Below are positions 3,365-37,875 of a stretch of 64,000 bases of DNA, piece after piece. The first letter of the stretch is position 1. Every line of letters starts with the position of its first letter. The position numbers and the translations under genes were made by a program. The DNA lies in the IMG/VR virus record IMGVR_UViG_3300037010_001838; one strand, 5' to 3'. A model generated the notes under the pieces. The model was not told the DNA's origin. It worked only from the letters and a program-made list of their open reading frames with translations, and ran no database searches. This stretch comes from a virus (Duplodnaviria > Caudoviricetes).

Positions 3365-3438
3365 GCTCAATTGGCTTAATGGTAAAGCAGGTGCTTCTAA
3401 AACACTTGACCGTCGGTTCGATTCCGACATTGGGCACC
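3365..3438 (+). tRNA. amber suppressor tRNA (CUA anticodon)
   Basis: acceptor GCTCAAT/ATTGGGC, D stem GCTT/AAGC, loop TT-CTA-AA (3395-3401) with a C31-A39 mismatch, T arm GTCGG-TTCGATT-CCGAC. Confidence 0.75.
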
Positions 3439-14300: not shown

Positions 14301-14520
14301 TCTTCCAAGTCTAACTCTTGATTGGTCTTCCGATATAGGTTTTGCAAGTTCAGAAGGTTTGTTATGGAATTTCTCAAATCGTTGTTTGGATGTTCGTAAT
14401 AATCAAGTAGCAGTTACAGGATACACGTACCAAAATGGAGCAGGAACAAATAATAGCCAAATGATGACTGTGAAAATACCGGTTGCCAACGTATTATTTT
14501 CTGTGGGGAATTGTAAATAA
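11386..14520 (+). CDS. large tail-fibre/virion structural protein
   Basis: 1044 aa, Ser/Thr/Gly-rich; fibre motifs (KVSKSGDTMTGFLTL, AATKQYVD, VDAKGRVT, KPTTLAGYGITD); propeller-like repeats at the C-terminus. Confidence 0.8.
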   Translation: MQLSFRQGLVQYQSNFLSWSTVRSDSISLSTTNKPVTVTFSQQSSEYLLVEPLGQNATVRWTGLPVSNSSDFWIFWDIDNLTALVTYGFTTVAPVFGPIDPFQTTIPFPTIPATGQHWFDTSSMTMKVWSGSSWTPKIRVFAAKIENGSIIVPYPPGTQVGVASPIKSGRILRDGTGTPIKKANKTFVTSEDRFFIENSDVRTAELETSIVVGIARESIPSYSAVKLEDFNDYYLANYEDTTAGFIGMAIDSATYGESLFVTIQGMITNPAWDWQTPNAKIWIDSNGQLTDVNPGIATPTRGFQQPIARVISPTSIIFGQGYFNDAGTVTNTVVTQKASGSIIGITELSLDPLNLNTPIAVGDNDPRMSDARTPLAHTHQSTDVFYQGTPLDTTLNLIMSDLSGKVSKSGDTMTGFLTLNANPVANLQAATKQYVDSAANQTITLSGDISGSGTSGITTTLSNSGVTAGTYNNSALTSTPFTVDAKGRVTATGTPITITPDWASVLWKPTTLAGYGITDGQPLNVDLTAISNLATGTTGVLTKTGPGTWTLGAASSGASNTIFQEDTSLTITDSGTNGTMSYVVDGRLVMTTDTRNIRFFSGAPDSWVSVVESGAFTLDNTGGSTVKIDSLGNIITLGSVNQSSLTSVLVIKVDSTGNTIWQRLISDNNGTSGATADASAIDSQDNIIMAVNVNHYGTSDTQPILKLDSDGNILWQVGVTQNIDINSPPGTYQPQITDIVVDSSNDVYAGGFLIIQNPDNPGLRTNAGLIVKLSGIDGSVMWQQLIQDSTSSRGDCHLTGITYNPSLNQIYVCGNLLTKDSFSNSSNNGFVAAYDSAGNRQWISLSDVSGDTTHINDQAYDAHGNLVNYKTFSGITLGVGSTLHNSGGTSIYVCGQAFTPRLTNFCICEYIATQGAGITATIGELVTSRTYDNSYGNHSQLYEIVATPTELIAVGNPQTNTFGSDWSILKISLPSLTLDWSSDIGFASSEGLLWNFSNRCLDVRNNQVAVTGYTYQNGAGTNNSQMMTVKIPVANVLFSVGNCK

Positions 14521-14581
14521 TAGCCAAACGATGACTGTAAAAATACCGGTTGCCAACGTATTATTTTCTGTGGGGAATTGT
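14448..14581 (+). repeat. 67-nt tandem duplication at the 3' end of the fibre gene
   Basis: 14448-14514 and 14515-14581, 2 mismatches. Confidence 0.95.
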
Positions 14582-14622: not shown

Positions 14623-15471
14623 GTGCCAATATCAGTACCACCAACAAGTCCAATAGTAGGATCTTTTAATTTTTGCTCTTTTCACATTTTACCAGATGAT
14701 TTTATTGAAACAAGTGTAGATACACTACTTTCCAATAACATAAATTCGTTAATATCGGGGGAAGAGTGGTTATTAACAGCTGTAGCGTCAGGACCTACAA
14801 CCTTTGTAACTCCTTCAGCAGTGTCATATTCAATTGATGCTTCTCAATATAGCACATTAGAGATTGACACTTTACCTTTCTCTTCAACGGTTTATACATT
14901 AACCGTTGATACAATTAACTCTTCAACTATTGTTAATGGAACTTTAACTTCTGATAATATAACATCTACTAATATAACCAATTCAGGAATTATAAGCACT
15001 AATACATTGAATGTTACTACTGGTATTAATTTTGGAACAAATACAACAAGTCCTCCAAACACAGTTATAATATCTGATTCAGGTGGACACCAACTTTGGG
15101 CAAATCCAAGTAGTTTGATAACGTCTCAATCTAATATATGGACAGCAGGCCAACGTGGACAATATGTTTATTTGGTTTCTTCTGGAGGAATTATCAATCT
15201 AGATATGGATTCAGGAAACAACTTCTCCGTTGTTATGACAGAAAATTCAACACTCAACTCTCCTGTTAATTCTGGTGCTGGTCAGAGTGGAATAATCGTA
15301 ATTCAAAATGGAACAACTCCGAGCACTTTAACCTTTAATTCATACTGGAAGTTTGCTGGTGGTGTTGCTCCAACGTTAACACCAACAGCAAACGCAGTTG
15401 ATGTGTTGAGTTATATGGTAAGTCCATCAGGAAATTTTGCAATTTGTCAAATTCTGAATGATATAAAATGA
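14623..15471 (+). CDS. tail-fibre-associated protein
   Basis: Thr/Asn/Ser-rich; C-terminal WKFAGGVAPTLT...VDVLSY module typical of fibre proteins. Confidence 0.65.
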   Translation: MPISVPPTSPIVGSFNFCSFHILPDDFIETSVDTLLSNNINSLISGEEWLLTAVASGPTTFVTPSAVSYSIDASQYSTLEIDTLPFSSTVYTLTVDTINSSTIVNGTLTSDNITSTNITNSGIISTNTLNVTTGINFGTNTTSPPNTVIISDSGGHQLWANPSSLITSQSNIWTAGQRGQYVYLVSSGGIINLDMDSGNNFSVVMTENSTLNSPVNSGAGQSGIIVIQNGTTPSTLTFNSYWKFAGGVAPTLTPTANAVDVLSYMVSPSGNFAICQILNDIK

Positions 15472-15706
15472 TACCTGGAATCTTTGTACCACTTTGGGGG
15501 AAAATCAGGAACATGTGATAAACTTTGGAACAAAGTTTTCTATTGTTTATGGAAATGGAAAATTTGTAACTGTTGGTTATGGAGCAACAAAAGTTTCAGC
15601 TGTAAGTCCTGATGGAATAAATTGGACGCAATCTGGGTTACCTGTTGCAAGTACATATAGTTCTATTGCACACGGAAACGGACATAAATATCCTTGTCCT
15701 TTATGA
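15468..15706 (+). pseudogene. fragment of a virion propeller-repeat gene
   Basis: IVYGNGKFVTVG/SPDGINWT/SIAHGNG repeats in a short, frameshifted ORF. Confidence 0.5.
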
Positions 15707-15812
15707 AAGATAGAACTCAATATGTTAATTATGAAACTCATACGAGCACATTTGACGTTTATTATTCCTCCATACTGTCAAACATGTTCTTATTTAAAAG
15801 GTAAAAAATAAA

Positions 15813-16448
15813 ATGAATAAAATAGACGTTCACATATGTAGGTTTGGTGATTATGATAAAAAACTATATGAACAGTGTCTAAAATCTATAGAACCTGCTT
15901 CACATTTAATAAACATACATTTCGTTGATGATATATCACCTCTCAAAAAAGCCCGATACGTAGGCTATGGTACAGGTTCGGCTGAATACATTTGTCACGT
16001 AGACCACGACGATTATGTGTTTCCAGAAGCATTTCAAGCGTGTTTGGAAGAAATAGAAAAAGATAAAACGCTTTCAGGTGTATATACTAACTCTTTTATA
16101 GTCAATCCGTATAAAAACATAAGAAGACAATTTTACAGTGAAACAACAGAGTGGACAAGAGAGTATCACATTCAAACACCAATTCCTGTTCATCCATTAT
16201 GCATAATGAGACGTTCTGTGTTCGATAAAGTGAAAGACGAATATTTAGAACATGGGTTAGAATTTCGTACAGACCAATATCTTTTTACGTTGATGGCTCG
16301 AGAAGGAGATTTTAAATTTCTTGGAAAAAAATATGGATACGCATGGAGAGATTTTAAAACCGGACACCATGTAAAAAACAACTCCCCAAAAGATAAACAA
16401 CATTTGATAGAATTCAAGAGACAAGTTCTTGGACCTTCCAAAAATTAA
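15813..16448 (+). CDS. glycosyltransferase family 2-like
   Basis: AEYICHVDHDDYV DxD-type motif, GT-A fold pattern. Confidence 0.75.
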   Translation: MNKIDVHICRFGDYDKKLYEQCLKSIEPASHLINIHFVDDISPLKKARYVGYGTGSAEYICHVDHDDYVFPEAFQACLEEIEKDKTLSGVYTNSFIVNPYKNIRRQFYSETTEWTREYHIQTPIPVHPLCIMRRSVFDKVKDEYLEHGLEFRTDQYLFTLMAREGDFKFLGKKYGYAWRDFKTGHHVKNNSPKDKQHLIEFKRQVLGPSKN

Positions 16449-16507
16449 TCATTGACAGATAACTATAAAACGAGTACAATATTAAAAATTTTATAGACTG
16501 AATTGAT

Positions 16508-16885
16508 GTGTCTGATATACTTGAACAAAATTCGAATACCGAAAACGTCGAAGATATAGATTTAAACATTCAACGTTTTATACAAGCATTTAACAAAGCA
16601 CGAACCGTTATTTTAACGGCTATAGTATATCTGTATCCAGAAAACTGGTCTGCAAGGTGTTCATTAGCAGACACCAAATTTGATAACACAATTTGGGCTT
16701 TTGATATTTTAAATGAAAACGGTGAAGTTCACGCGCAATACCTTATTGATGATATTGTGGCTGTATTAAATACGGCGCGTGAAGAAGCAACAGAATTACT
16801 CGAAAAGAACCCACACTATAAAGATACAAAATATCTTATTGGTGTGGGAACTGAAAGAGCGTTACAACAATTTAATGTTAACTGA
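16508..16885 (+). CDS. hypothetical protein
   Basis: 125-aa ORF after a sigma70-like promoter. Confidence 0.55.
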   Translation: MSDILEQNSNTENVEDIDLNIQRFIQAFNKARTVILTAIVYLYPENWSARCSLADTKFDNTIWAFDILNENGEVHAQYLIDDIVAVLNTAREEATELLEKNPHYKDTKYLIGVGTERALQQFNVN

Positions 16886-17157
16886 ACACCAAGAATGAAG
16901 ACCCTGGACCGGCGTCGGTTGTTACTTGATTTTCATAATGCAATACCCTAAATACAGATGTGGTAATTGACCCTACGGTATACAGCAAAAACGACCGATG
17001 GTGTTCCAATAACATAATATCTGGATACGGATGTATATGTTGGAATAGTACCAAATGTTTGGAGTGGGGTTGTGTTTATTGCTGGCATGATGTATTTTTC
17101 TTAAAACTTAATAATAAATATAAAGGTATAAACGACAAACTTAAAAGGAACAATCAA

Positions 17158-17709
17158 ATGAAATTAAAAGACCTAATTCCTCTAACAGAAAATACTACAG
17201 ACTGGGTTGTGTATAAAGTTACCAACTCTAACAACCATAGCACTTATTATGGGTATGGAAAGGGTAATTTAAGACAGACGTTCTTAGCTGGTGCTAATCG
17301 GAACGCTGCCGATAGAACAGAAGCAAAATATGTGAACGCAGCAGGTGGAATTGATAATTGCAAATTTAAAGAGATGGAAATTTTTGATAGCGAATATGAA
17401 GCTTTTATGGAACGAAACGATCTTCGTTCAAAAGATCCAGATTCAATCACAGGGCCATCACGTTTACCATCAGGAATGTTCGAACGTGCCCTAAAAGAAA
17501 ATCCAAAACGAGTTAGTGGATGGAAATTAGGAGCTAGTATTAATGACGAGACTGCAAGAGGAGCCATGAAGAATTTTCCTGAAGAATGTGTGTATGATAC
17601 TAAGAGACTGAGAGATCTTGTTGGAACAGATAAAAAATTAGAAGCTCAAGTTAAAAAAGATTTGGACAGTATGACTTATCCTGCATTTATAAAGAAGTAC
17701 AACCTGTAA
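17158..17709 (+). CDS. GIY-YIG-like protein with capsid-targeting-like N-terminus
   Basis: MKLKDLIPLTE start; VYKVTN..NHSTYYGY and FDSEYEAFMER resemble GIY-YIG motifs. Confidence 0.55.
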   Translation: MKLKDLIPLTENTTDWVVYKVTNSNNHSTYYGYGKGNLRQTFLAGANRNAADRTEAKYVNAAGGIDNCKFKEMEIFDSEYEAFMERNDLRSKDPDSITGPSRLPSGMFERALKENPKRVSGWKLGASINDETARGAMKNFPEECVYDTKRLRDLVGTDKKLEAQVKKDLDSMTYPAFIKKYNL

Positions 17710-17794
17710 CTTATATTATTATAGTGAACTGGACATCAACGGATGTATCAAGTTGACTCTTTGATTAAAAAGATATATAATATTTTATTGATTT

Positions 17795-18027
17795 GTGGTG
17801 CCCGAATCCCTTTATGGTAAAGACACCACGAAAATAGTCCAGTGGACCTCAGAAACGGTGTATGTGTAGTGGTAGGCGCTAAACGTTGATACATACACTA
17901 GCCGTAAGGACCTCCTGAAGTAACAGGACACCTTGGATATTGCGGGTTAAGAACCTGTTGCCAAGGATGCGATAGTGTGAAGCCGACGAAGACGGGCTCA
18001 AACCTGGCAAGGAAGTGGAAAGCTTCC
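17795..18027 (+). ncRNA. candidate structured ncRNA
   Basis: own promoter (TTGACT 17753, TATAAT 17776), six hairpins, no ORF. Confidence 0.5.
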
Positions 18028-18042
18028 AAATTTAAACTTTTT

Positions 18043-18098
18043 TGTTGACTTTTATAAATAAGTCATATATACTTGTATCAACAGTTGAGCAAAGTGCT
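18043..18098 (+). promoter_or_regulatory. tRNA-cluster promoter A with TGACTT-N8-AAGTCA palindrome
   Basis: TTGACT(18045)-17 nt-TATACT(18068); 56-nt block identical to 31399-31454. Confidence 0.9.
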
Positions 18099-18127
18099 CA
18101 ATAAATTTAATTAATGGAGATTTGCAA

Positions 18128-18226
18128 ATGATTTTTACGACTTTCTTTACAGCGTTTACAACCCCTGAGGCATGGCATGCCCCAGAGATGGCTGTGTGCG
18201 CTCTTGAGGAAGGTTGGAAAAACTAA
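18128..18226 (+). CDS. attenuator leader peptide A (MIFTTFFTAFTTPEAWHAPEMAVCALEEGWKN)
   Basis: GGAG RBS, 32 codons rich in Phe/Thr/Ala/Pro/Glu, followed by a terminator. Confidence 0.85.
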   Translation: MIFTTFFTAFTTPEAWHAPEMAVCALEEGWKN

Positions 18227-18244
18227 AAAGTTTCCAGAAATTCT

Positions 18245-18276
18245 AAAAAGGGCGCTCCGAAAAAGCGCCCTTTTTT
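18245..18276 (+). terminator. attenuator terminator A
   Basis: AAAAAGGGCGCT-CCGAAAA-AGCGCCCTTTTTT; 5' arm can instead pair with GCGCTCTT at 18198-18205. Confidence 0.9.
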
Positions 18277-18310
18277 ATTGTTTGTTGATTTTGTAGTAAA
18301 TGTTTTAAAC

Positions 18311-18326
18311 TGTTCATTAACAATTT
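18311..18326 (+). promoter_or_regulatory. boxA-like antitermination element A
   Basis: TGTTCATTAACAATTT versus rrn boxA TGCTCTTTAACA. Confidence 0.7.
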
Positions 18327-18338
18327 GGATTCGTTTGT

Positions 18339-18412
18339 CAGGGTGTGGGAAAGTTTGGTAATCCGCGAGTTTTGGAAACTCGAGACCACTGGTTCAAATC
18401 CAGTCATCCTGA
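18339..18412 (+). tRNA. tRNA-Pro(UGG)
   Basis: CGAGT-TTTGGAA-ACTCG; no encoded CCA; flanks extend the acceptor pairing. Confidence 0.9.
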
Positions 18413-18440
18413 CAAACGAATTCTAAACAAAAAATATTAT

Positions 18441-18516
18441 CTCTGTGTGGTGCAATCTGGTAGCATAGCTGGTCCGGAGCCAGGCGATCAAGGTTCAAAT
18501 CCTTGCATGGAGACCA
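18441..18516 (+). tRNA. tRNA-Pro(CGG)
   Basis: loop TC-CGG-AG with non-canonical C33; CCA. Confidence 0.75.
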
Positions 18517-18523
18517 AACGAAT

Positions 18524-18602
18524 GGGGTTAGGGACTGCTTGGCGTGGTCGCCGCACTTGCAATACGGAAAACAGCTCGGTTCAAATCCGAGTAGCTCCAC
18601 CA
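18524..18602 (+). tRNA. tRNA-Ala(UGC)
   Basis: loop CT-TGC-AA, G3:U70, CCA. Confidence 0.9.
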
Positions 18603-18605
18603 AAT

Positions 18606-18744
18606 GGGTGATTCGGGTGGCTAAGGCGGGTTCGATTCCCGTATGCTCCACCAAAAGAACTTTTAAATGTTGAAGTTCTTTTAATGGGGGCATGATGGTT
18701 GCTGCCGACGGGCAAGACGAGTTCGATTCTCGTATCGTCCACCA
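18606..18744 (+). other. two truncated tRNA-like units (T arm plus CCA end)
   Basis: 18606-18653 and 18686-18744 have a T arm and TCCACCA end but no anticodon arm. Confidence 0.55.
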
Positions 18745-18793
18745 AAGTTTGTAAACCAAAGTTTGTAATTAGAGTGTGCTAAAACTAAAAAAT

Positions 18794-18880
18794 GCACGGG
18801 AAGTCAGATGGATTGGACACCACCCTTTCAAGGTGGCAGGTGAAAACCGTTTGCGGGTTCGAGTCCCGTTCCGTGCTCCA
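18794..18880 (+). tRNA. tRNA-Glu(UUC) with long variable arm
   Basis: CCACC-CTTTCAA-GGTGG, ~16-nt variable region, CCA. Confidence 0.85.
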
Positions 18881-18901
18881 ATTTTCACAAGTAAAACAAC
18901 T

Positions 18902-18971
18902 TTCAGTATAGTGTAATGGTTAGCACGACCCCGTTGGTGGGTTAGAGTGTGGTTCGATTCCCACCTGAATA
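18902..18971 (+). tRNA. degenerate tRNA (Gln UUG-like)
   Basis: D and T arms present; loop CG-TTG-GT and weak acceptor stem. Confidence 0.4.
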
Positions 18972-19042
18972 TGACAACTAGAGAGCAAGCTACTCTTTCA
19001 TTGGTGGTCTGATCAACTAAGATGACAAGTGAAACGATTAAC

Positions 19043-19120
19043 GTAACTGTAGCTCCAATCACGCAGAGCATTTGTCTAAAAAGCAAAGTGTTGCGGGTCC
19101 GAATCCTACTGGTTACACCA
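19043..19120 (+). tRNA. tRNA-Phe-like pseudogene with 6-nt anticodon loop
   Basis: TTTGT-CTAAAA-GCAAA (CTGAAAA lacking G34); CCA. Confidence 0.55.
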
Positions 19121-19149
19121 AACGAATTTACTTACAAATTCGTTATAAA

Positions 19150-19225
19150 GCCGCTATAGCAAAGATGGTCTATGCGACGGACTGAAAATCCGAGGATCTC
19201 CGATCGTTACGGAGTGGCGGCGCCA
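19150..19225 (+). tRNA. tRNA-Phe(GAA)
   Basis: loop CT-GAA-AA, CCA; atypical T loop. Confidence 0.85.
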
Positions 19226-19490
19226 AACAACGCTCCAACAAGTGCTGTGGGTAAGCCTATCGTTAAAAAACGAGATTGAAATCTCGGCTGAGGTTTCATT
19301 GAGTTTTACAAAACGGTGAAAATTCTAGACAGGGTTCGATTCCCTACGAGTGACCAACAACGGACACTAGACATTTGACATAGTGTCCACTGAATTAAAT
19401 CTTGGTTTTCTAGTATACTAAGAGTATAATTAACATTATATTTGTAATTTGCGTTTTCGAATAAATATACCACTTGTTGGAAAAATTAAC

Positions 19491-20093
19491 ATGATCAAAA
19501 ATTTTATGTTTTTAATGATGCTGGTTGTTTCAACACATGTTTACGCTCTTAGTTATTCTATTGTAAATTGGAGACTGATATTGTCGGGTGATATCACGAA
19601 AAAAGATTTAACCGAAATGCCAAAATATCTGACAAATCAAATAGATACAGTTGTGTTTGATAGTGTAAATGGAGGAGATGCTGGAACGACTTTAGAGTTG
19701 CTTCCATTATTTGAAGCAAGACCGAGAGTTCATATCGTTTCTGGGTTTTGTGAAAGTTCCTGTGTAATTATGTTTTTAGCCGGAACAGATAGAATATCTT
19801 ATGGTATAATTGGACTCCATTCTGTATATTCGTATGACACAAACAAGATAAACCCCCATCTAAGCCATCTCTTTAATAAGTATGTTGAAAAAAGACTTGG
19901 TTCAAAGTATGACAAGCAGTTATTTTCTTTTGTTTTTAATAAAATGATAGACCACAATGAATTGTTGATTTTTAGCAAAAATGATTTTGGAAAATTGTGT
20001 GGTTCTGATTCTTGTGGGACACCAATCGCAAGAACTGCTGAAGAACTGGGATTGACAACAGATAAACATTTTATGTTAACATCCAACTGGTAA
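19491..20093 (+). CDS. exported protein, Clp/crotonase-like fold
   Basis: signal peptide ending VYA; DSVNGG and GFCESSC...FLAG motifs. Confidence 0.55.
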   Translation: MIKNFMFLMMLVVSTHVYALSYSIVNWRLILSGDITKKDLTEMPKYLTNQIDTVVFDSVNGGDAGTTLELLPLFEARPRVHIVSGFCESSCVIMFLAGTDRISYGIIGLHSVYSYDTNKINPHLSHLFNKYVEKRLGSKYDKQLFSFVFNKMIDHNELLIFSKNDFGKLCGSDSCGTPIARTAEELGLTTDKHFMLTSNW

Positions 20094-20098
20094 CAAAC

Positions 20099-20172
20099 GC
20101 CGCCTTCGTATAATGGTATTACGCAACCTTTGTAACGTTGATATGTCAGTTCGATTCTGACAGGTGGCTCCA
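20099..20172 (+). tRNA. tRNA-Thr(UGU)
   Basis: loop TT-TGT-AA, CCA. Confidence 0.85.
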
Positions 20173-20266
20173 AATTGATTGTAAAATTTGACTTGCAAGC
20201 AACCGAGTTGGAATAGCTGGAGTGACTCTGGTAGACGGTTCAATTCCGTATCAATCAATTAACAAT

Positions 20267-20342
20267 GGTGACCATAGTGTAAAGGTAGCATTTCTCGCTG
20301 TGAACGAGGAGGAGTGGGTTCAATTTCCCACTGGTCACCCCA
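20267..20342 (+). tRNA. tRNA-His(GUG)
   Basis: loop CT-GTG-AA, G-1:C73, CCA. Confidence 0.9.
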
Positions 20343-20386
20343 ATTCAATCGTTGACTTTTTATAATAAATCTGTAAAATTAGTTTT

Positions 20387-20443
20387 AAGACACTAACAGC
20401 AACTCAAAAAACTTTCTATGCTAAGGAAACTAAACGTGTCTTG
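20387..20443 (+). ncRNA. stem-ACAGCAA family RNA copy E3
   Basis: AAGACAC-TAACAGCAA...GTGTCTT-G directly after a TTGACT/TAAAAT promoter. Confidence 0.6.
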
Positions 20444-20567
20444 TTCACAAAAACAGTAACTAAAACAAGGAGGGTAGGGAAATGCTAAACGCAAACAAAA
20501 ATGGAAGAAACACTTCGGTCTAAGACAAGTAGGAATAACTACCGACAACAAACCAGTTATCAGTGGT

Positions 20568-20804
20568 TTGGATGTATTCAAACACACAGAAACTCTTGGT
20601 ATCCCTCTCGAATTTATAATTGACCATATTAAAGAAAACAACTGTGTTGTAAATTGGTTGGAGTTTTTAACTGTGTCGATTGAGCACGGGTGGAACATAA
20701 AATCAACAATAACAAAAATTGAATATGCTCTCGTTGATGTATACGATAAGGTGTATGCAAACGAAGTAATTTCAAGGTTAAAACAACTAATCGCTTTCAA
20801 TTAG
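20568..20804 (+). CDS. hypothetical protein
   Basis: FKHTETLGIPLE motif; real start probably upstream (~20481) across a frameshift. Confidence 0.5.
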   Translation: MDVFKHTETLGIPLEFIIDHIKENNCVVNWLEFLTVSIEHGWNIKSTITKIEYALVDVYDKVYANEVISRLKQLIAFN

Positions 20805-20899
20805 TAAGGAACATTAAATTCAAATTTCCCCTAAACTGGTTTGATAAATATAAAATGGTTTGATAAATAGTGCTACAATATCGACCCAAAGGAAATCAA

Positions 20900-21946
20900 A
20901 TGTCAAAAGTTCTATTTATATTGAAGCGAAAAGAAAATTACGGTGTGGCTAATTTTCATGAACCAAGAGGATTGTCAACGGGTTTACTAAATTCAGCGTC
21001 ATATGTAAGTGATATGTTAAACAGTATTGGAATTTCATCAGAGATTGAAATTGCTGTCGATAATAATTGCATTGACAGGATTGTAACACAACACAAACCT
21101 TCCGTTGTGATTATAGAAGCTTTGTGGGTTGTTCCAGAAAAATTTGAAATTCTTCAAAAACTTCATCCTAGTATTCGTTGGATTGTAAGACTTCACAGTG
21201 AAGTTCCGTTTATGGCTCAAGAAGGAATTGCATTCGCTTGGATTACTGACTATTTAAAATATAAAAACGTTTACGTTGGTGTCAATTCACTAAGAATGGT
21301 TAAAAGTTTAATAAACCTTCATTTGAATAGTGAGGGGGCTGAAGATAAGTTTTTGTTTATGCCAAACTATTATCCAATTTTAAACACAAAAACAAAAGTT
21401 CCTGATTATAAATCAGAGGAACTCAACATTGGATGCTTTGGGGCTGTTAGACCATTGAAAAATCATATACACCAAGCACTAGCAGCAATTCACTTTGCTG
21501 ACAAAGAAAACAAAAAACTTAATTTTCACATTAACGCTAACAGACTTGAAATGAAAGGGGAACCAATTCTCCACAATTTACGAAGAATGTTTGACCGTCA
21601 GAAACAACATGGTCATAAATTAGTCGAACACGCATGGCAACCAAGAGAAGAATTTTTGGAATTGTGCGGGCAAGTGGATGTTGGAATGCAGGTGTCTTTT
21701 AGTGAAACGTTTAATATTGTTGGGGCGGACCTTATAAATCAAGGGATTCCAGTTGTTTCTTCAAGTGAAATTCCATGGGCAGTAGGATTTTTTGGTGCAA
21801 GTCCAGTAGACCAAGATTCCATCGAACGTGGGTTAAGTAGAGCATATCATTGTCCGAGAACGAATAGATATCTCAACTTCTTGAAATTACATTCTTATTC
21901 AGAAAATAGTTTAAGTGTGTGGAAAAAATTATTTTCTAATGTGTAA
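20900..21946 (+). CDS. glycosyltransferase (GT-B, family 1/4-like)
   Basis: NIGCFGAVRPLKN and VSFSETFNIVGAD motifs. Confidence 0.75.
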   Translation: MSKVLFILKRKENYGVANFHEPRGLSTGLLNSASYVSDMLNSIGISSEIEIAVDNNCIDRIVTQHKPSVVIIEALWVVPEKFEILQKLHPSIRWIVRLHSEVPFMAQEGIAFAWITDYLKYKNVYVGVNSLRMVKSLINLHLNSEGAEDKFLFMPNYYPILNTKTKVPDYKSEELNIGCFGAVRPLKNHIHQALAAIHFADKENKKLNFHINANRLEMKGEPILHNLRRMFDRQKQHGHKLVEHAWQPREEFLELCGQVDVGMQVSFSETFNIVGADLINQGIPVVSSSEIPWAVGFFGASPVDQDSIERGLSRAYHCPRTNRYLNFLKLHSYSENSLSVWKKLFSNV

Positions 21947-21980
21947 TTAATTGAATTAACCACGAGGAGATTAAAGAACT

Positions 21981-22349
21981 ATGAAGATTGAAGAGTTAAT
22001 GGAAAGTTTGGTTGTTTGGAAACCAATTGACGGTTGGTCAAACTATGAAGTTTCTAACACAGGACAAGTTCGTTCGACTAAAACAAATAAAGTTTTGGCC
22101 CAAGAAGAACACTACGGTCACGACAAAAAATCTCCGTATATGAGAGTTCACTTGTCACAAAATGGAGTCAAAAAACACCTTAGAGTGAACAGGTTAGTTG
22201 CATATGCTTTTATTGGACCACCACCAGATCGTAATATGCACGTAGACCATAAAGATAATAACACCAGAAATAACAAATCAACAAATCTTCAGTGGCTTAC
22301 TCCTACTGAAAATTTAAAAAAACGTCTAGCACATAAGTCAGAACATTAA
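21981..22349 (+). CDS. NUMOD4/HNH homing endonuclease
   Basis: WKPIDGWSNYEVSNTGQVRS; VDHKDNNTRNNKSTNLQW. Confidence 0.9.
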   Translation: MKIEELMESLVVWKPIDGWSNYEVSNTGQVRSTKTNKVLAQEEHYGHDKKSPYMRVHLSQNGVKKHLRVNRLVAYAFIGPPPDRNMHVDHKDNNTRNNKSTNLQWLTPTENLKKRLAHKSEH

Positions 22350-22375
22350 TTACAAAAACTGTTTCTATTTCAAAA

Positions 22376-22452
22376 GCCACATAAGCAGAACTGGTGATGC
22401 GCCTGTTTCGTAATCAGGAAATACGTTGGGTTCAAGTCCCCGATGTGGCACC
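22376..22452 (+). tRNA. tRNA-Thr(CGU)
   Basis: CCTGT-TTCGTAA-TCAGG. Confidence 0.85.
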
Positions 22453-22469
22453 TACACAAAAATAACTAA

Positions 22470-22765
22470 ACCTTCTATATCTATAAATTTATCGATAATA
22501 GCGTCTTCAATTAAAGATTTGTTTCCAGAAAAGGTGTCTCATCAAATAGTTGGTCTTGAACTTATTGGTGATGAATTAATCGCAACGCTTGAAACTTTGG
22601 ATACACCAGAAGGAATTGAAGTCAAAACACTGATTGAGAATGTCCCCACTGAATGTCGACCAACCGGAGTTGGGTATATCGTTGATGACCCAACAGGACA
22701 ATCATCTGGAATAATTAAAGAAGAATTTAGGATTTACGAATGTTGCGATAGTTCCAAAAGATTAA
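22470..22765 (+). pseudogene. prohead-protease (gp21-like) domain remnant
   Basis: VSHQIVGLELIGDELIATLETLDTPEG resembles the T4 gp21 VSH...LDTP.G motif; no clear start; boundaries approximate. Confidence 0.4.
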
Positions 22766-22766
22766 T

Positions 22767-22840
22767 AGACCACAAGTGTTACGGTAGCACAGCGGCCTCC
22801 AAAGCCGCGGGTCGGGGTTCGACTCCCTGGTGGTCTGCCA
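22767..22840 (+). tRNA. tRNA-Trp(CCA)
   Basis: GCGGC-CTCCAAA-GCCGC, CCA. Confidence 0.95.
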
Positions 22841-22918
22841 AATGGATGAAAATGTATAGATTTGAAGTGTACGTGATAGATCGAGAAGGTTTTGGTCCAC
22901 ATGGTGCAAGATAATATT

Positions 22919-22995
22919 GGTGATGTGGGTGAAAAGGTAATACCGCCTTGCTCATAACGAGGAACATTCCAGTTCGATTCTGGACATCACCACCA
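22919..22995 (+). tRNA. tRNA-Met/Ile2(CAU)
   Basis: loop CT-CAT-AA, paired G1:C72, CCA. Confidence 0.9.
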
Positions 22996-23024
22996 AGACA
23001 TTAAAACGCAAAAAACGTGTCTTG
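22995..23024 (+). ncRNA. minimal or degenerate stem-ACAGCAA copy E4
   Basis: AAGACAT-TAAAACGCAA-AAAAC-GTGTCTT-G between two tRNAs. Confidence 0.35.
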
Positions 23025-23028
23025 TTGC

Positions 23029-23102
23029 GCCCTTATAGTATATTGGTATTACTCTTCTCTGGTATAGAAGGAAATGCAGTTCAATTCTGCATGAGGGCAC
23101 CA
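23029..23102 (+). tRNA. tRNA-Thr(GGU)
   Basis: CTTCT-CTGGTAT-AGAAG, CCA. Confidence 0.9.
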
Positions 23103-23129
23103 TAAATAATAAAAACTGGAGAATCTAAC

Positions 23130-23366
23130 ATGAAAATTCGTGATTTCTTAAATGAAACTGTTTACAATTTAAATAAAACTGATGATATAGATAAAGGAAA
23201 TATTGATCCAGAGAAATATTATGTGTTTATCAGAACTGTTGACCCAACACTTGTCGGACCTTTTAACACATCAAGTGAAGCACATAAATACATGAATGGA
23301 GAGTATGTTACTGATCGTGTAGAAAAGATCGTTGTAAGTGGAACTGAAGCAAAAAGATTATTTTAA
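23130..23366 (+). CDS. late protein with capsid-targeting-like N-terminus
   Basis: TAAATA upstream, GGAG RBS, MKIRDFLNE. Confidence 0.65.
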   Translation: MKIRDFLNETVYNLNKTDDIDKGNIDPEKYYVFIRTVDPTLVGPFNTSSEAHKYMNGEYVTDRVEKIVVSGTEAKRLF

Positions 23367-23395
23367 ACGAATCCAACTTGTTTGTTGATATTAGT

Positions 23396-23510
23396 GTTGT
23401 TGTATATCAGTTGGTTAGAGATAACGTCTGCTCGAGGGTGTAGCCCCCGGTAAAGGACCGCAACGCTGCAGATAAAACGTTCGCCGATGGTTCGAGTCCA
23501 TCCAACAACA
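23396..23510 (+). tRNA. tRNA-like gene with ~41-nt structured insertion in the anticodon loop
   Basis: normal acceptor, D and T arms; AACGT-CTG[insert]ATAA-AACGTT. Confidence 0.7.
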
Positions 23511-23519
23511 CTAGATTTT

Positions 23520-23593
23520 GGGGCTGTAGTATAAAGGGATTACGGAAGCTTTGCAAGCTTTTTATCGGGGTTCGATTCCCCGCAGTTCCACCA
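23520..23593 (+). tRNA. tRNA-Ala(UGC)
   Basis: loop TT-TGC-AA, G3:U70, CCA. Confidence 0.9.
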
Positions 23594-23742
23594 AATTTTA
23601 CAATACAGGAAAGTAACGGAACCGAGAGCCTGTATCTCTCCGACGTTCCAGCCTTTTAATTCAGTTGTCTTCAAATTTAACATCTGGTATAATCTCTTAT
23701 AATAAATACTTTACAAATATAACTATAATGGAGAACAATATT

Positions 23743-24096
23743 ATGTCAATAAAAGAACTTGTAGCAATAAGTGATACACCATCAAAGATAGAAAAGGTGG
23801 AAAAGATATCTTCTGACATTTTAATAATTGTTCGAGATATGATAGCAACTATGGAACACCATAACCTCAAATATATTACAGCTCCAGACATTGGTGTTAA
23901 CCAACAAATTATCGCAGTTGATGTTACAGATCACGAACTTGGTATTTTAATAGCAGTAAATCCTGAAGTTGTGTACGATGAAGATGAGGTGTTAATTGTT
24001 GAATATGTTGATTTGTCAGGTCAAGTACAATCATCAGTATTCCACAAAAAACTCGCTAGTTTTATTCGCCACGCGTTATATGAAATTGGGGTATAA
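23743..24096 (+). CDS. peptide deformylase-like protein, catalytic motifs degenerate
   Basis: YITAPDIGVNQQIIAVD...AVNPEV matches the PDF N-half; EGCLS missing; HEXXH replaced by HALYE. Confidence 0.7.
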   Translation: MSIKELVAISDTPSKIEKVEKISSDILIIVRDMIATMEHHNLKYITAPDIGVNQQIIAVDVTDHELGILIAVNPEVVYDEDEVLIVEYVDLSGQVQSSVFHKKLASFIRHALYEIGV

Positions 24097-24098
24097 CA

Positions 24099-24359
24099 AT
24101 GTTGAAAGTAGCTTTTTTACAAACATGGAAACGTCACAGCTTTGAATTCGTTTTATTAATGATAATATCTGTCCTTTCTTTGAAATTCATTTTCTTGGAA
24201 ATTGACTGTACTAAAGGAATTACTACAGCGGAATTGTTGATAGCAGGGTTTTTTTGGTTAGTAACTGTATTATATCCCATATTGTCGTTTTTAACTTTTT
24301 ATTTTCAAGCTAAAATAGATCGATTACAAGAGGAGATTGACGAAAATGGCAAAGTTTGA
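24099..24359 (+). CDS. small membrane protein
   Basis: two hydrophobic segments. Confidence 0.6.
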   Translation: MLKVAFLQTWKRHSFEFVLLMIISVLSLKFIFLEIDCTKGITTAELLIAGFFWLVTVLYPILSFLTFYFQAKIDRLQEEIDENGKV

Positions 24360-25218
24360 GTGGAGTGAAGTTTTTACTTCAATAGAAGGTGAAGGACCTT
24401 ATGCTGGTGTACCAACAGCATATATCCGATTCACAAAGTGCAACTTTATGTGTAAAGGTTTTAATAATCCAACCCACATAGATACCGAAACAAACATAGG
24501 GTTAGGATTTGACCCCACGAAATTTAAAACATTAAAAGAACTACCACCAATTACTCTTGGGTGTGATAGCATTTATGCTTGGGACAATCGTTTTGCTCAT
24601 TTGTGGCAGTCTGGAAATGAGGAACAATTAATTGATGCTGTATTAGATACTATTCCCCACAAATCTTGGGTTCATCCTGTAACTGGACAACCAGTCATCT
24701 TGAGTTTAACAGGTGGAGAACCAACTCTCCGTCAAAAACAACTTTCTGCTTTGTTAAATCATCCAAAGATGGACGATTGTAAACATCTATTAATTGAAAC
24801 AAATTGTTCAGTTCCTATACGTGATGATTTCATTAATTTACTAAATTCGTGGTGGAAACCTGGACGAAAGATCACATTTGCCAATTCACCAAAACTCCGG
24901 GCAAGTGGAGAAAAATGGGAAGATGCGATTAAACCAGAGGTCGCGTTAGCGCAACAAAGAGTAAAGCGTGCTGAACAATATTTTAAATTTGTGTGTGATG
25001 CAAATGCAGAAGATTTTGATGAAGTTGAACGAGCGATGAAAGTTTATTGGGATGCTGGTGTTGTTCAACTAAATAATGTTCTAATTATGCCAACCGCGTG
25101 TACTGAAGAGCAACAAACAAACATAGCGGCGACTGTTGCTAATATGTGTATTGAAAAAGGGTATACATTCTGTTATAGAGTGCATGTTCCTGTATTTAAG
25201 AACGCAATTGGAACTTAA
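24346..25218 (+). CDS. queE: 7-carboxy-7-deazaguanine synthase (radical SAM)
   Basis: SEVFTSIEGEGPYAGVPTAYIRFTKCNFMC...GCDS; LTGGEP; LIETN. Confidence 0.85.
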   Translation: MAKFEWSEVFTSIEGEGPYAGVPTAYIRFTKCNFMCKGFNNPTHIDTETNIGLGFDPTKFKTLKELPPITLGCDSIYAWDNRFAHLWQSGNEEQLIDAVLDTIPHKSWVHPVTGQPVILSLTGGEPTLRQKQLSALLNHPKMDDCKHLLIETNCSVPIRDDFINLLNSWWKPGRKITFANSPKLRASGEKWEDAIKPEVALAQQRVKRAEQYFKFVCDANAEDFDEVERAMKVYWDAGVVQLNNVLIMPTACTEEQQTNIAATVANMCIEKGYTFCYRVHVPVFKNAIGT

Positions 25219-25331
25219 ATGAGTGACTTATATGAAGTGTCCTGATACTAACCATCAGGCTTCCTTCTGTAGTATTGATTTATGTTGGTATTGATATTTT
25301 ACGAAACAACTCACACAAATATAGGTGAAAT

Positions 25332-26294
25332 GTGTCTCTTTCAAATGTTAAGATTTTCGCTGGAAATTCAAATATTGAATTCGCCACAAAGATAGCAAGT
25401 AGGATGGGGTTAGCACTCGGTAAGGCTAAAGTAAGTAAGTTCAAAGACGGTGAAACATCTGTTGAAATTGAAGAGTCGGTTAGAGGAAGTGTTGTATTTG
25501 TTATTCAGTCAACGTGCAATCCTGTTAACGACAATTTAATGGAATTATTGACAATGACAGACGCATTAAGAAGAGCTGCTGCAAAACGCATTATTGCAGT
25601 TGTTCCTTATTATGGATATTCCAGACAAGATAGGCGTCCAGGATTTAGCCGTGGACCAATTACTTCCCGTCTTGTAGCAGATGTGATTCAAGCAGCTGGT
25701 ATTGACCATTTAGTATCGGTTGATATTCATTCTCTTCAACAACAAGGGTTTTTTACGATTCCCTTTACTAACATTTCCGCTTCCGTTGAATTCATTAAAG
25801 ATATCAGAATGATGTATCGTAAAGAAAAAGAAGAAAAAACACTTATGGTTGTTTCTCCTGATATCGGTGGAGTATTACGTTCTAGACAAATTGCAGAACA
25901 GTTAAACGGTGACACTCAATTAGCTATTGTGGATAAACGTCGCCCACGAGCTGGTGAATCAGAAGTTATGAACATCATCGGTGACGTAGAGGGAAAAGTT
26001 TGTATTATGGTTGATGATATTGTAGATACAGCTGGAACTTTATGTAAGGCTGCGAAATCTTTAAAGGACCATGGTGCTCTTAAAGTTGTTGCTTATGCCA
26101 CTCACCCTGTATTATCAGATAATGCTTACGAGAATTTAACTCATTCAGTGTTAGACGAATTAGTAGTAACAGATACAATTCCACTAATAGGCAATGTTCC
26201 AAATAACATCAGACAATTATCAATTAGTGATTTGGTTGCAGAAACTATACGAAGAATGAGGTCCAAGCAGTCTGTTAGTCAAATATATGTTTAA
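25332..26294 (+). CDS. prs: ribose-phosphate pyrophosphokinase
   Basis: FKDGET, PYYGYSRQDRR, VSPDIGG, MVDDIVDTAGT. Confidence 0.97.
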   Translation: MSLSNVKIFAGNSNIEFATKIASRMGLALGKAKVSKFKDGETSVEIEESVRGSVVFVIQSTCNPVNDNLMELLTMTDALRRAAAKRIIAVVPYYGYSRQDRRPGFSRGPITSRLVADVIQAAGIDHLVSVDIHSLQQQGFFTIPFTNISASVEFIKDIRMMYRKEKEEKTLMVVSPDIGGVLRSRQIAEQLNGDTQLAIVDKRRPRAGESEVMNIIGDVEGKVCIMVDDIVDTAGTLCKAAKSLKDHGALKVVAYATHPVLSDNAYENLTHSVLDELVVTDTIPLIGNVPNNIRQLSISDLVAETIRRMRSKQSVSQIYV

Positions 26295-27490: not shown

Positions 27491-27682
27491 ATGCCTCTTT
27501 ATACTTATCAATGTTCATCGTGTCATTCGAAAGAAGATGTGCTCGAAAAAGTCCAAGAATCCAATGAACCAAAAATTTGTCCATCTTGTGGAAAACCAAC
27601 GTTTTTGAGAATTATCTCACAAGGAATACCCTTTCATCTAAAAGGTGAAGGGTATTACGAAACTGACTTTAAAAACAAGTAG
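27491..27682 (+). CDS. FmdB-family zinc-ribbon protein
   Basis: MPLYTYQCSSC...CPSCG...FHLKGEGYYETD. Confidence 0.9.
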   Translation: MPLYTYQCSSCHSKEDVLEKVQESNEPKICPSCGKPTFLRIISQGIPFHLKGEGYYETDFKNK

Positions 27683-27869
27683 TCAATCGCGTTCTTTGTT
27701 CAATGGCTTCGGAGATGAACGTGATCAACTCCGTATACTCTGTCGGATCATACACCATTACTACCGTTGTTTTTAGTGGGCTGGTTTGTCTAAAATAGTC
27801 GTCCACCACCACATCAAACAATTGATTGTCAACATAATCAATTGTCCAAGTGGTTTCCCCAAATAGCAA
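27669..27869 (-). CDS. hypothetical protein
   Basis: ORF in the repeat-bounded segment. Confidence 0.35.
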   Translation of the reverse strand: MLFGETTWTIDYVDNQLFDVVVDDYFRQTSPLKTTVVMVYDPTEYTELITFISEAIEQRTRLTTCF

Positions 27870-28616: not shown

Positions 28617-29071
28617 TTAGAATTCAATTTCAAGTGCGTTTGCAAACACGTTGGCATCTGCAATTGCGCGTGTAGAAAGGTGTTGAAGTTTGATCACAAA
28701 TACTCCAGATAAAATAACAGGATGAAGCAATCATCTCACATTCACCCCATAAAGTCAACAATCACTTTTTCAACGGTAAAAACACAACGGTAAAGGATGT
28801 ATTCCAGAGTATGGTTTTGTTCCTGATGCTTTTTCCACTCATCGTGAAACTTCCACTCAAGAGGTTCACGCGATAAGCGGTGGACGTTCTTACCGTCGTG
28901 CGCCATTACTCTGTAACCTCTTCTTCTGTGAACAGTACCCAAGTTCCTGGTGCGTATGCAACAGCAACCAGGCCAGATTCCATCAAAATGTTTTTGAGAA
29001 TTATCTCACAAGGAATACCCTTTCATCTAAAAGGTGAAGGGTATTACGAAACTGACTTTAAAAACAAGTAG

Positions 29072-29608
29072 TCAATCGCGTTCTTTGTAAAATGTAAGGT
29101 GCTTTGTTTTTAACACTTCAACAAAACTTGGAGATACTGCCCAAGAAGGTGTAACTCGTTCATCGTGAAAATGTGTAGCACCGTGTGTTATATCTGTACG
29201 TTGTTGAATTACAAATGCGTGCATAATACTTGCAGCAATTTCTTGAGCACTGGCCCATTTATCAGATTCCGTGTTTATGTCTTTATCCCCCTCACATTGA
29301 TATGAGAATTGACACACGTGCTTTCCGGACCGAGTTTTGGTTGTTTGATGTGTAACTGCACACACTGTTTTAGGATAGTCTGAATCTATTACACGATTTA
29401 TTACTACGTTTGCAACAGCAAGTTGTGATTTTTTATAATCTGCAGCTTCAAAATATATTGTTTCAGCTAAACAGTATCGTTGTTTGTCAATAGAGCTTTT
29501 ATTTGTATCAATAAGTTGTTGTAAATTGTTCTGTTTTTCTTGGTATTCAGAACCCGCGTAAACTGTAGATGTAACTAACAAAAAAATGGACAATAGTATC
29601 CCTCTCAT
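29072..29608 (-). CDS. SleB-like cell wall hydrolase
   Basis: CLAETIYFEA, AVANVVINRV, YPKTVCAV, CQFSY, GATHFH. Confidence 0.9.
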   Translation of the reverse strand: MRGILLSIFLLVTSTVYAGSEYQEKQNNLQQLIDTNKSSIDKQRYCLAETIYFEAADYKKSQLAVANVVINRVIDSDYPKTVCAVTHQTTKTRSGKHVCQFSYQCEGDKDINTESDKWASAQEIAASIMHAFVIQQRTDITHGATHFHDERVTPSWAVSPSFVEVLKTKHLTFYKERD

Positions 29609-31398: not shown

Positions 31399-31454
31399 TG
31401 TTGACTTTTATAAATAAGTCATATATACTTGTATCAACAGTTGAGCAAAGTGCT
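31399..31454 (+). promoter_or_regulatory. tRNA-cluster promoter B with palindrome
   Basis: identical to 18043-18098. Confidence 0.9.
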
Positions 31455-31468
31455 TAACTAAATAGTTA

Positions 31469-31564
31469 GGTGTTGAAAGCTAGGACGTCCCGGTACTAAC
31501 AAAACATAGAAATATGTGGGTGCGTAGAAGCGTATATTAAGCAGACGATAAAGTAGTAAACACC
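31469..31564 (+). ncRNA. structured 5'-UTR element upstream of leader B
   Basis: GGTGTT/AACACC closing helix, ACATA-GAAA-TATGT hairpin. Confidence 0.4.
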
Positions 31565-31587
31565 ATTTAATTTAAGGAGCTTTACAA

Positions 31588-31683
31588 ATGTTCGTAACCA
31601 GACAACAACAGAGTATTAGTATCATTCGCCGACGCCAAGTGCGTCGCGACAGTGATATTATTATGTCTGGAGGCTGGGTATAG
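31588..31683 (+). CDS. attenuator leader peptide B (MFVTRQQQSISIIRRRQVRRDSDIIMSGGWV)
   Basis: AAGGAG RBS, 31 codons rich in Gln/Arg/Ile/Ser/Asp/Val. Confidence 0.9.
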   Translation: MFVTRQQQSISIIRRRQVRRDSDIIMSGGWV

Positions 31684-31706
31684 CATAAAGCTAAATTCTT
31701 AAAAAG

Positions 31707-31739
31707 AAAAACCCAGTTTCCAAAAGAGACTGGGTTTTT
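31707..31739 (+). terminator. attenuator terminator B
   Basis: AAAAACCCAGTTTC-CAAAA-GAGACTGGGTTTTT; alternative pairing with GGAGGCTGGGT at 31669-31679. Confidence 0.9.
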
Positions 31740-31750
31740 CGTTTTACAAC

Positions 31751-31766
31751 TGTTCATTAAAAATTT
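31751..31766 (+). promoter_or_regulatory. boxA-like element B
   Basis: TGTTCATTAAAAATTT. Confidence 0.65.
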
Positions 31767-37166: not shown

Positions 37167-37406
37167 ATGAAATTAAAACAATTGTTTGAAACTGAATTAT
37201 ATAAGTTTTATTGTTCAAAGTCCAATGGATTTATCACGAGTGCTGCTAGTCTTACACCAGAAGTGATTTCGACAATGAAGAAACATTCTGAAAAGACGGG
37301 ATACCCTGTCGAAGTAAAGAAAGATGGAAAGGTTGTTGGAAAGATTACGAAGAGTGGTATGGAAAAGTTGAATGAAAGTGAAATCACAAAAGGTAAGACA
37401 AAATAG
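37167..37406 (+). CDS. late protein with capsid-targeting-like N-terminus
   Basis: TAAATA upstream; MKLKQLFE. Confidence 0.65.
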   Translation: MKLKQLFETELYKFYCSKSNGFITSAASLTPEVISTMKKHSEKTGYPVEVKKDGKVVGKITKSGMEKLNESEITKGKTK

Positions 37407-37638: not shown

Positions 37639-37667
37639 TTGACTTTCATAAATAAGTCATATATACT
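37639..37667 (+). promoter_or_regulatory. tRNA-cluster promoter C with palindrome
   Basis: TTGACTTTCATAAATAAGTCATATATACT, one base different from promoters A and B. Confidence 0.9.
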
Positions 37668-37703
37668 TATAACACTAACTTAACAAACTTAAAGAATTTA
37701 CAA

Positions 37704-37805
37704 ATGTTCGATTCAACAAAACCAATTTTTATCAATAATGTAAACGTTAATAATAAACGTTCACACGCTGAGGCATTGACTGTTGAAATCAAACTAATCA
37801 TCTGA
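37704..37805 (+). CDS. attenuator leader peptide C (MFDSTKPIFINNVNVNNKRSHAEALTVEIKLII)
   Basis: 33 codons with an NNVNVNNK core; weak RBS; same TTTACAAATG start context as leader B. Confidence 0.8.
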   Translation: MFDSTKPIFINNVNVNNKRSHAEALTVEIKLII

Positions 37806-37825
37806 AAGTAAACAAAAGTTAATAG

Positions 37826-37858
37826 GCCTCGGCAGAGAAATCTCCCGAGGCTTTTTTT
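37826..37858 (+). terminator. attenuator terminator C
   Basis: GCCTCGG-CAGAGAAATCTC-CCGAGGC-TTTTTTT; alternative pairing with GCTGAGGC at 37767-37774. Confidence 0.9.
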
Positions 37859-37859
37859 A

Positions 37860-37875
37860 TGTTCTTTAAAAATTT
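37860..37875 (+). promoter_or_regulatory. boxA-like element C
   Basis: TGTTCTTTAAAAATTT. Confidence 0.7.

Follow-up and report, generated by a model that had tools for sequence, protein, structure and literature searches.

Why does a short open reading frame, closed off by a strong terminator, stand between a promoter and an array of phage tRNA genes? To our knowledge, how phages control their own tRNA genes is largely unknown, and we know of no tRNA operon that is under leader-peptide attenuation. We analyzed a stretch of 64,000 nucleotides of phage DNA (hereafter the window), which is AT-rich (about 36% GC) and carries at least 32 phage tRNA genes. Judged from its sequence, the unit found near 18 kb, which we call cassette A, probably controls a phage tRNA operon by ribosome-mediated leader-peptide attenuation of transcription. 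The parts of this cassette and the array behind it are as follows.

18045..18073, + strand: promoter A, TTGACT-17-TATACT, near-consensus and sigma-70-type by sequence
18084..18102, + strand: 5' stem-loop just past the presumed transcription start
18116..18119, + strand: Shine-Dalgarno sequence GGAG, 8 nt 5' of the ATG
18128..18226, + strand: leader ORF A, 32 codons plus TAA (ATG at 18128, TAA at 18224-18226)
18138..18220, + strand: 1:2 hairpin of the untranslated RNA, regulatory codons (region 1) paired to the distal part of the ORF (region 2)
18198..18255, + strand: antiterminator 2:3, GCGCTCTT (18198-18205) paired with AAGGGCGC (18248-18255), with inner helices between
18245..18281, + strand: intrinsic terminator 3:4, 12 pairs and a T-run, -17.3 kcal/mol
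18308..18326, + strand: rrn-type boxA, 3' of the terminator and 5' of the first tRNA; its core, TGTTCATTAACAA, is at 18311-18323
18339..23593, + strand: tRNA array A (ARAGORN and Rfam)

The terminator is made up of a 5' arm (18245-18256), a loop (18257-18263), and a 3' arm (18264-18275) followed by the T-run, and the first tRNA gene lies 63 nt past it. Folding predictions suggest that the 1:2 hairpin is a protector or pause structure. The 5' stem-loop is common to cassette B (see below) and to the relatives L035 and L033, and may have a role in transcript stability. A leader ORF with a ribosome-binding site just 3' of the promoter is the layout seen in 13 cassettes.

The stretch was detected only in four DNA sequencing runs, from mats and sediments, and in no RNA run; the phage is known only from such metagenomes. 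Its nearest record is the IMG/VR contig G001 (178,796 bp), which is 99% identical to the window and rated 52% complete, implying a genome of about 340 kb. When the GenBank phage collection was searched for close relatives, only tRNA-level matches were obtained, and the QueE proteins of the nearest phage isolates show <48% identity to the QueE of the window. Besides G001 and a second IMG/VR contig, G002, orthologs were sought with the neighboring QueE-like gene as a handle. In total, the 13 cassettes are distributed across seven related jumbo-phage contigs, whose proteins are about 34–78% identical. G002 (proteins 34–76% identical to those of the window) has cassettes A, B, and D; L035 has cassette A; L039 has both A and B; and cassette B was found in L034, in L033/L036 (a 343-kb NCBI assembly), and in L040. 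Two further QueE relatives, G003 and L037 (53–57% identity), have no tRNAs near QueE. Promoter pattern scans matched the two IMG/VR contigs and none of the metagenome contigs. A scan of metagenomes with a leader-core pattern produced 52 matches, which were rejected as chance occurrences inside ordinary genes, apart from one contig that was already known.

The first line of evidence is the match between the leader and the tRNA genes behind it. Codons 3-22 of leader A (18134-18193) are FTTFFTAFTTPEAWHAPEMA and specify exclusively Phe, Thr, Ala, Pro, Glu, Trp, His, and Met; the Thr codons of the leader are ACG, ACT, ACA, ACA, and ACC. The first block of array A comprises Pro-UGG, Pro-CGG, Ala-UGC, Glu-UUC, Phe-GAA, Thr-UGU, and His-GUG, and inserted ORFs separate it from Thr-CGU, Trp-CCA, Met-CAU, Thr-GGU, and Ala-UGC. 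An extra Phe-AAA between Glu and Phe was called by Rfam only. The isotypes of the array are exactly Pro, Ala, Glu, Phe, Thr (UGU, CGU, and GGU), His, Trp, and Met. An earlier note on this DNA had claimed that codons 3-22 are all cognate to tRNAs at 18.3–23.6 kb, and that all four Thr codons are used in a region with Thr UGU, CGU, and GGU tRNAs; the ARAGORN and Rfam calls agree with it on both points. Over its whole length, 24 of the 31 residues of leader A are cognate to the array, compared with a proteome expectation of 0.33 (binomial P = 5e-7), and chance is excluded as the source of this match. Between tRNA-Ala and tRNA-Glu, we also observed a fragment resembling a tRNA 3' half (T arm, acceptor, and CCA; 18626-18700, + strand), which has weak tmRNA-type Rfam matches.

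The earlier note had also raised a caveat, namely that Thr-CGU, Thr-GGU, Trp, and Met lie 4–5 kb downstream. The distance stands, but it weighs less in the light of L035 and of the boxA. In L035, a single compact array of 1.4 kb directly after the orthologous leader A contains Pro, Glu, Phe, Thr, His, Trp, and Met tRNAs, and thus every one of the eight isotypes except Ala. Array A of the window therefore appears to have been split by later insertions of ORFs, one of which encodes an HNH endonuclease (21981-22349). The processivity that a boxA would confer softens the caveat further. Promoter-like sites at 18884 and 20352 within array A could drive the distal tRNAs independently; such sites are no commoner in this region than in shuffled sequences.

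Cassette A is one of four paralogous cassettes (A–D), three of which are in the window, while D lies in G001 about 5.7 kb upstream of the window. All four share a common plan: promoter, leader of 31–33 codons, strong terminator, rrn-type boxA, and tRNA array. Alignment of the four units revealed the same promoter followed by unrelated leader ORFs. The other two cassettes of the window are located as follows.

31401..31763, + strand: cassette B (promoter 31401-31429, leader ORF 31588-31683, terminator 31708-31738, boxA 31751-31763)
37639..37872, + strand: cassette C (promoter 37639-37667, leader ORF 37704-37805, terminator 37825-37852, boxA 37860-37872)

Each of these cassettes has an array of its own. 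The array of B is Gln, Gln, Asp, Gln, Arg, Val, Ile, Asp, Arg, Ser-GCU, and Arg; that of C is Val-GAC, Asn, and three Lys; and that of D is Tyr, Cys, Leu, Gly, and Ser. Leader B has many Gln, Arg, Ile, Asp, Ser, and Val residues, with the run RQQQSISIIRRRQVRRDSD; the corresponding runs are NNVNVNNK in leader C and GLGYCLSLGSLS in leader D. Counts of cognate residues are 18/30 in D, 24/31 in A, 24/30 in B, and 11/32 in C (binomial P against the phage proteome of 7e-3, 5e-7, 6e-7, and 3e-2, respectively), so that the whole-length enrichment of C and D is modest (P = 0.03 and 0.007). In the leader-by-array matrix, D, A, and B each have their highest count on the diagonal, and off-diagonal counts lie between 2 and 12. 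Leader C has slightly more residues cognate to the larger B set (12/32) than to its own (11/32), but its own set is the most enriched relative to set frequency. When the 605 ATG-ORFs of 25–45 codons in G001 were ranked by enrichment in any of the four sets, leaders A and B took the first and second places. The agreement extends to codons: Val in leader B is GTA or GTG and its own Val tRNA is Val-UAC, Ser is AGT with its own Ser-GCU, and Val in leader C is mostly GTT with its own Val-GAC.

Comparison of orthologous leaders pointed in the same direction, as their substitutions remain within the cognate set. In L040, where Asn, Met, and Ile-UAU tRNAs form part of the array, there are AAT, ATG, and ATA codons in the leader, which are missing from the regulatory stretch of leader B of the window. 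Judged by these sequences, leader and array evidently co-vary in the L040 lineage.

The 29-nt promoter, spacer included, recurs at 31401, at 37639 (with one change), and upstream in G001. It shows 0–2 changes in G002 and L039 and at most four in L033 and L035; the A copies of G002 and L039 are identical to that of the window, and their other copies differ at two positions. An inverted repeat, TGACTT-N8-AAGTCA, is present within it. Its conservation together with this repeat suggests that the promoter may be an operator for a regulator. A further near-consensus promoter, TTGACT-17-TATAAT (17753-17781), opens the region 17753-18040 (+ strand) upstream of cassette A. Past it, some 250 nt of non-coding RNA are moderately structured (z = -2.2), and no terminator intervenes before cassette A; this region is absent from G002. 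B is the only one of cassettes A–D whose 5' leader is extended, by a structured segment of about 140 nt (31436-31575, + strand) between the promoter hairpin and the Shine-Dalgarno sequence. A long 5' leader is likewise present in L040.

The second line of evidence is the predicted behavior of the RNA. In the free leader RNA of the 13 cassettes, the terminator had a predicted probability of 0.83–1.0 in 12 cases and 0.48 in L035, the 1:2 pairing one of 0.41–0.98, and the 2:3 pairing one of about 0; the corresponding values for leader A are 0.96, 0.73, and 0.00. In the folding model, the default of the free leader RNA is the off state. Ribosomes were then modeled by removing the covered RNA and all RNA behind it, with the transcript cut before the 3' arm of the terminator. 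Under these conditions, region 2 captures the 5' arm when the A site is at about codons 2-19 in A, 2-23 in B, 2-17 in C, and 2-15 in D, and capture is lost past these ranges. In leader A, occupancy of the 5' arm is about 0.66 at A-site codons 2-19 and 0.2–0.3 afterward, that is, the antiterminator competes once the ribosome footprint is masked. These stall limits, derived from structure, fall where the cognate runs end. In A, C, and D, region 2 stays physically uncovered when the ribosome has reached the stop codon, and termination in that situation would rely on steric exclusion and 1:2 re-pairing, which lie beyond what the masking model can prove.

With the limits of the regulatory stretch set from RNA structure alone, cognate residues make up 56/70 inside it and 20/53 outside it in the four paralogs (p = 1.8e-6). 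In the 12 cassettes with at least five downstream tRNAs, the counts are 187/231 (81%) inside and 57/136 (42%) outside (Fisher p = 3e-14); orthologous cassettes are related, so these pooled counts are not independent events.

The pairing between 18198-18205 and 18248-18255, by which the earlier note had linked the distal ORF to the 5' arm of the terminator, holds at these coordinates: GCGCTCTT and AAGGGCGC form eight pairs, one of which is G-U. The antiterminator duplex of A reaches -13.5 kcal/mol, compared with -9.4 +/- 1.7 in dinucleotide shuffles (p = 0.017). A duplex of the distal ORF with the 5' arm was stronger than in shuffles in all seven cassettes tested (p from <0.003 to 0.027), and in each cassette the distal ORF segment pairs with its own 5' arm at -9 to -23 kcal/mol. 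The terminator arms themselves differ among cassettes (GGGCGC, CCCAG, GGCCTCGG, and GCCTGGC), and in a cross-matrix of distal segments against arms, each segment's own arm ranks first or close to first. Changes in region 2 are matched by changes in both terminator arms; for instance, region 2, 5' arm, and 3' arm are CTGGG/CCCAG/CTGGG in cassette B of the window and CCGGG/CCCGG/CCGGG in that of G002. Since MAFFT placed the helices between region 2 and the terminator out of register, and registers differ between lineages, we relied on per-cassette duplexes and the cross-matrix rather than on column-wise covariation. The arm-occupancy measure for A was only weakly above shuffles (p = 0.10); this measure discriminates poorly because A-rich arms pair with any U-rich stretch.

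The third line of evidence lies between the terminator and the tRNAs. In the alignment of the four units, the box after the terminator has the form AACTGTTCATTAAAAATTTG, and matches to its core pattern, TGYTCWTTAAMAA, number exactly three in the window's 64 kb, each of them after a cassette terminator and before the first tRNA. By our count, the box agrees at 16/19 positions with the E. coli rrnB boxA region as given in PMC2176067. A boxA at this place in every cassette indicates that transcripts from the promoter are meant to run on into stable-RNA genes. By analogy with rRNA operons, it would make the polymerase that reads through processive. Like the boxA of rrn operons (a Nus antitermination signal, also known from lambda nut), the phage box is part of a leader transcribed ahead of stable-RNA genes; it differs in directly following a putative attenuator, and no boxB or boxC partner was identified.

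Taken together, these lines of evidence indicate that cassette A probably operates as follows. The strong sigma-70-type promoter would start a transcript whose first 100 nt or so encode the 32-codon leader. If the leader is read fast, region 2 would be covered by the ribosome, left behind it, or paired again with region 1, so that the terminator (18245-18275) forms and transcription ends ahead of the tRNAs. Where decoding is slowed at a codon for Phe, Thr, Ala, Pro, Glu, Trp, His, or Met among codons 3-19, the stalled ribosome would hold region 1, leaving region 2 (18198-18205) to pair with the 5' arm; no terminator would form and the polymerase would read on. At the boxA, this polymerase might then recruit Nus factors, and could thereby cross the structured, untranslated tRNA array processively. 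Leader A would act as an OR gate over eight isotypes, and the three sister cassettes would exert the same control for the other amino acids. The output would be the very tRNAs whose shortage caused the stall, hence a negative-feedback supply loop that senses demand. Candidate triggers include codon-usage mismatch with the host, loss of host tRNAs during infection, tRNA-cleaving defenses, and amino-acid starvation. The earlier note had already read the cassette as a leader-peptide attenuator, and this reading is strengthened by the full anatomy, the paralogous cassettes, the diverged orthologs, and the matching of each leader to its own set.

Other explanations were weighed against this evidence. 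The ORF might be a free-standing small gene or an insulator unit, with the tRNAs transcribed from other promoters or by constitutive leak, and with a resemblance in residues that is not regulatory. A small gene, too, would consist of a promoter, a short ORF, and a terminator; array A contains promoter-like sites (18884 and 20352); and the tRNAs of phage T5 are driven from many promoters with small ORFs in between. However, such an arrangement would leave unexplained why four unrelated leaders each match their own array and why the cognate residues fall exactly within the structure-defined stretch. In addition, the C-termini of the peptides vary along with the terminator arm, and in each cassette the terminator is followed by a boxA, with no consensus promoter between the boxA and the first tRNA. 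We consider this explanation unlikely.

Alternatively, the transcript from promoter to terminator might be an untranslated small or structured RNA in which the reading frame is incidental. The leader A transcript does fold far better than its shuffles (z = -6.0), and in other bacteria attenuator RNAs that have been terminated are capable of acting in trans, as described in PMC6614838. On the other hand, the Shine-Dalgarno sequence and the ATG are kept in 13/13 cassettes, and although the sequence has changed heavily, the frame stays open for 28–34 codons. The signal in composition lies at the level of codons and amino acids, and no Rfam family matches. Moreover, a role in trans could accompany attenuation and would not replace it. 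An incidental frame is accordingly quite improbable.

Least probable of all is a control of read-through that does without translation, whether tRNA is bound directly as in a T-box or the conserved promoter or leader is the target of a protein that binds RNA or DNA. The (near) identity of the 29-nt promoter across phages with about 50% protein identity and its TGACTT-N8-AAGTCA repeat hint at a protein site. However, Rfam scans of the window gave neither a T-box nor any other riboswitch, a T-box relies on a single specifier codon rather than on a translated run of 20 codons for eight isotypes, and an operator at the promoter would add a layer of control while leaving the leaders unexplained.

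The attenuation proposed here has well-known cellular counterparts. The general mechanism of leader-peptide attenuation is outlined in PMC1183508, and the his leader has been used to measure ribosome speed on given codons, according to PMC4046918. The leaders trpL, hisL, pheL, and leuL, and the multivalent thrL and ilvL, likewise consist of a promoter-proximal short ORF with a run of regulatory codons, overlapping 1:2, 2:3, and 3:4 hairpins, and an intrinsic terminator, and slow decoding favors read-through. Unlike the phage cassettes, which precede tRNAs, these enterobacterial leaders control biosynthetic enzymes and cover one to three isotypes, compared with eight for leader A. The phage element further differs in being viral, in being one of four elements among which the 20 amino acids are divided, and in having a boxA after it. 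No match to the Rfam leader families was detected at E <= 1 in positions 15000-26000. As the downstream genes are tRNAs rather than genes for biosynthesis, transport, or a synthetase, the cassette falls into no named leader family.

Two other systems are closer to the translation apparatus. In E. coli, pheST is controlled by a leader-peptide attenuator (pheM) that senses decoding of cognate codons, and its product is phenylalanyl-tRNA synthetase. This is likewise a component of the translation apparatus, but one synthetase for one amino acid is controlled rather than tRNAs themselves. The T-box binds uncharged tRNA directly, without translation and through a single specifier codon. It likewise couples tRNA status to terminator read-through via a competing antiterminator; however, no T-box was matched by Rfam in 15000-26000 at E <= 1, nor in the whole window at the gathering score.

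Among phages, the tRNA clusters of T4, T5, and other jumbo phages are likewise arrays in which small ORFs and homing endonucleases occur among the tRNAs. According to PMC12409363, phage tRNAs are considered to compensate for the loss or cleavage of host tRNAs. In T5, promoters abut the tRNAs, unlike in the cassettes of the window. A generic scan for a terminator and a codon-matched ORF upstream of tRNAs recovered most known cassettes but missed those of L035 and L036, and the same crude scan found no such combination in T5 or in the Yersinia jumbo phage fHe-Yen9-04, a negative that is weak since true cassettes were missed. A full-text literature search returned no report of leader-peptide attenuation of tRNA operons, whether phage or cellular. 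The mechanism itself is known; what would be new are tRNA genes as its target, leaders for eight isotypes, the partition into four channels, and the pairing of an attenuator with a boxA.

A broader proposal, which we put forward only tentatively, is that this family of phages of about 340 kb carries a four-channel, translation-coupled sensor of decoding, with 3–8 amino acids per channel, that serves as an inducible counter-defense and represents the first attenuated tRNA genes. If this is true, each channel would turn on only the matching tRNA array, allowing a selective response to depletion of host tRNAs, including the cleavage of isoacceptors by anticodon-nuclease defenses. On the attenuation reading itself, the speed of ribosomes on chosen codons would feed back on tRNA supply through four separate channels, a circuit that is testable. 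Such a circuit would explain why tRNAs are grouped by amino acid in these phages and would tie phage tRNA arrays to host defenses that target tRNA. In addition, the cassettes would be small natural devices for sensing the capacity to decode defined sets of codons, and could serve as reporters.

Several additional features of the window and its relatives were observed. A full-length GOLLD RNA (Rfam RF02032, 198.8 bits, with a gathering score of 150) is located among the upstream tRNAs at 4606-5051 (+ strand) and is also present in G001. At 3365-3438 (+ strand) there is a tRNA with the anticodon CUA, of the amber suppressor type (Rfam tRNA, 63.9 bits), and proteins with an RF-1/PCRF domain are encoded within the tRNA regions of relatives (L034 3158-3655 and L039 4337-4861). 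Together, these observations hint at stop-codon reassignment or late-stage recoding. The stop codon of leader B of the window is TAG.

Many of the tRNAs are over-long (84–93 nt). With permissive ARAGORN settings, predicted tRNA genes were found that have insertions of about 31–33 nt in or near the anticodon loop, one example being the Tyr-GUA just after cassette D. These insertions may be small tRNA introns. The predicted genes bearing them include the following.

G001 37395-37513: insertion-bearing predicted tRNA (permissive ARAGORN)
Window 39212-39325: insertion-bearing predicted tRNA (permissive ARAGORN)
Window 39342-39457: insertion-bearing predicted tRNA (permissive ARAGORN)
Window 23396-23511: insertion-bearing predicted tRNA (permissive ARAGORN)

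Finally, two kinds of repeats were noted. Two tandem 67-nt copies, 97% identical, are located at 14448-14581 (+ strand), at the 3' end of an ORF of 1044 amino acids with a head-decoration-like domain, and a 108-nt direct repeat, also 97% identical, occurs at 27598-27705 and 28987-29094, its copies lying 1.4 kb apart.
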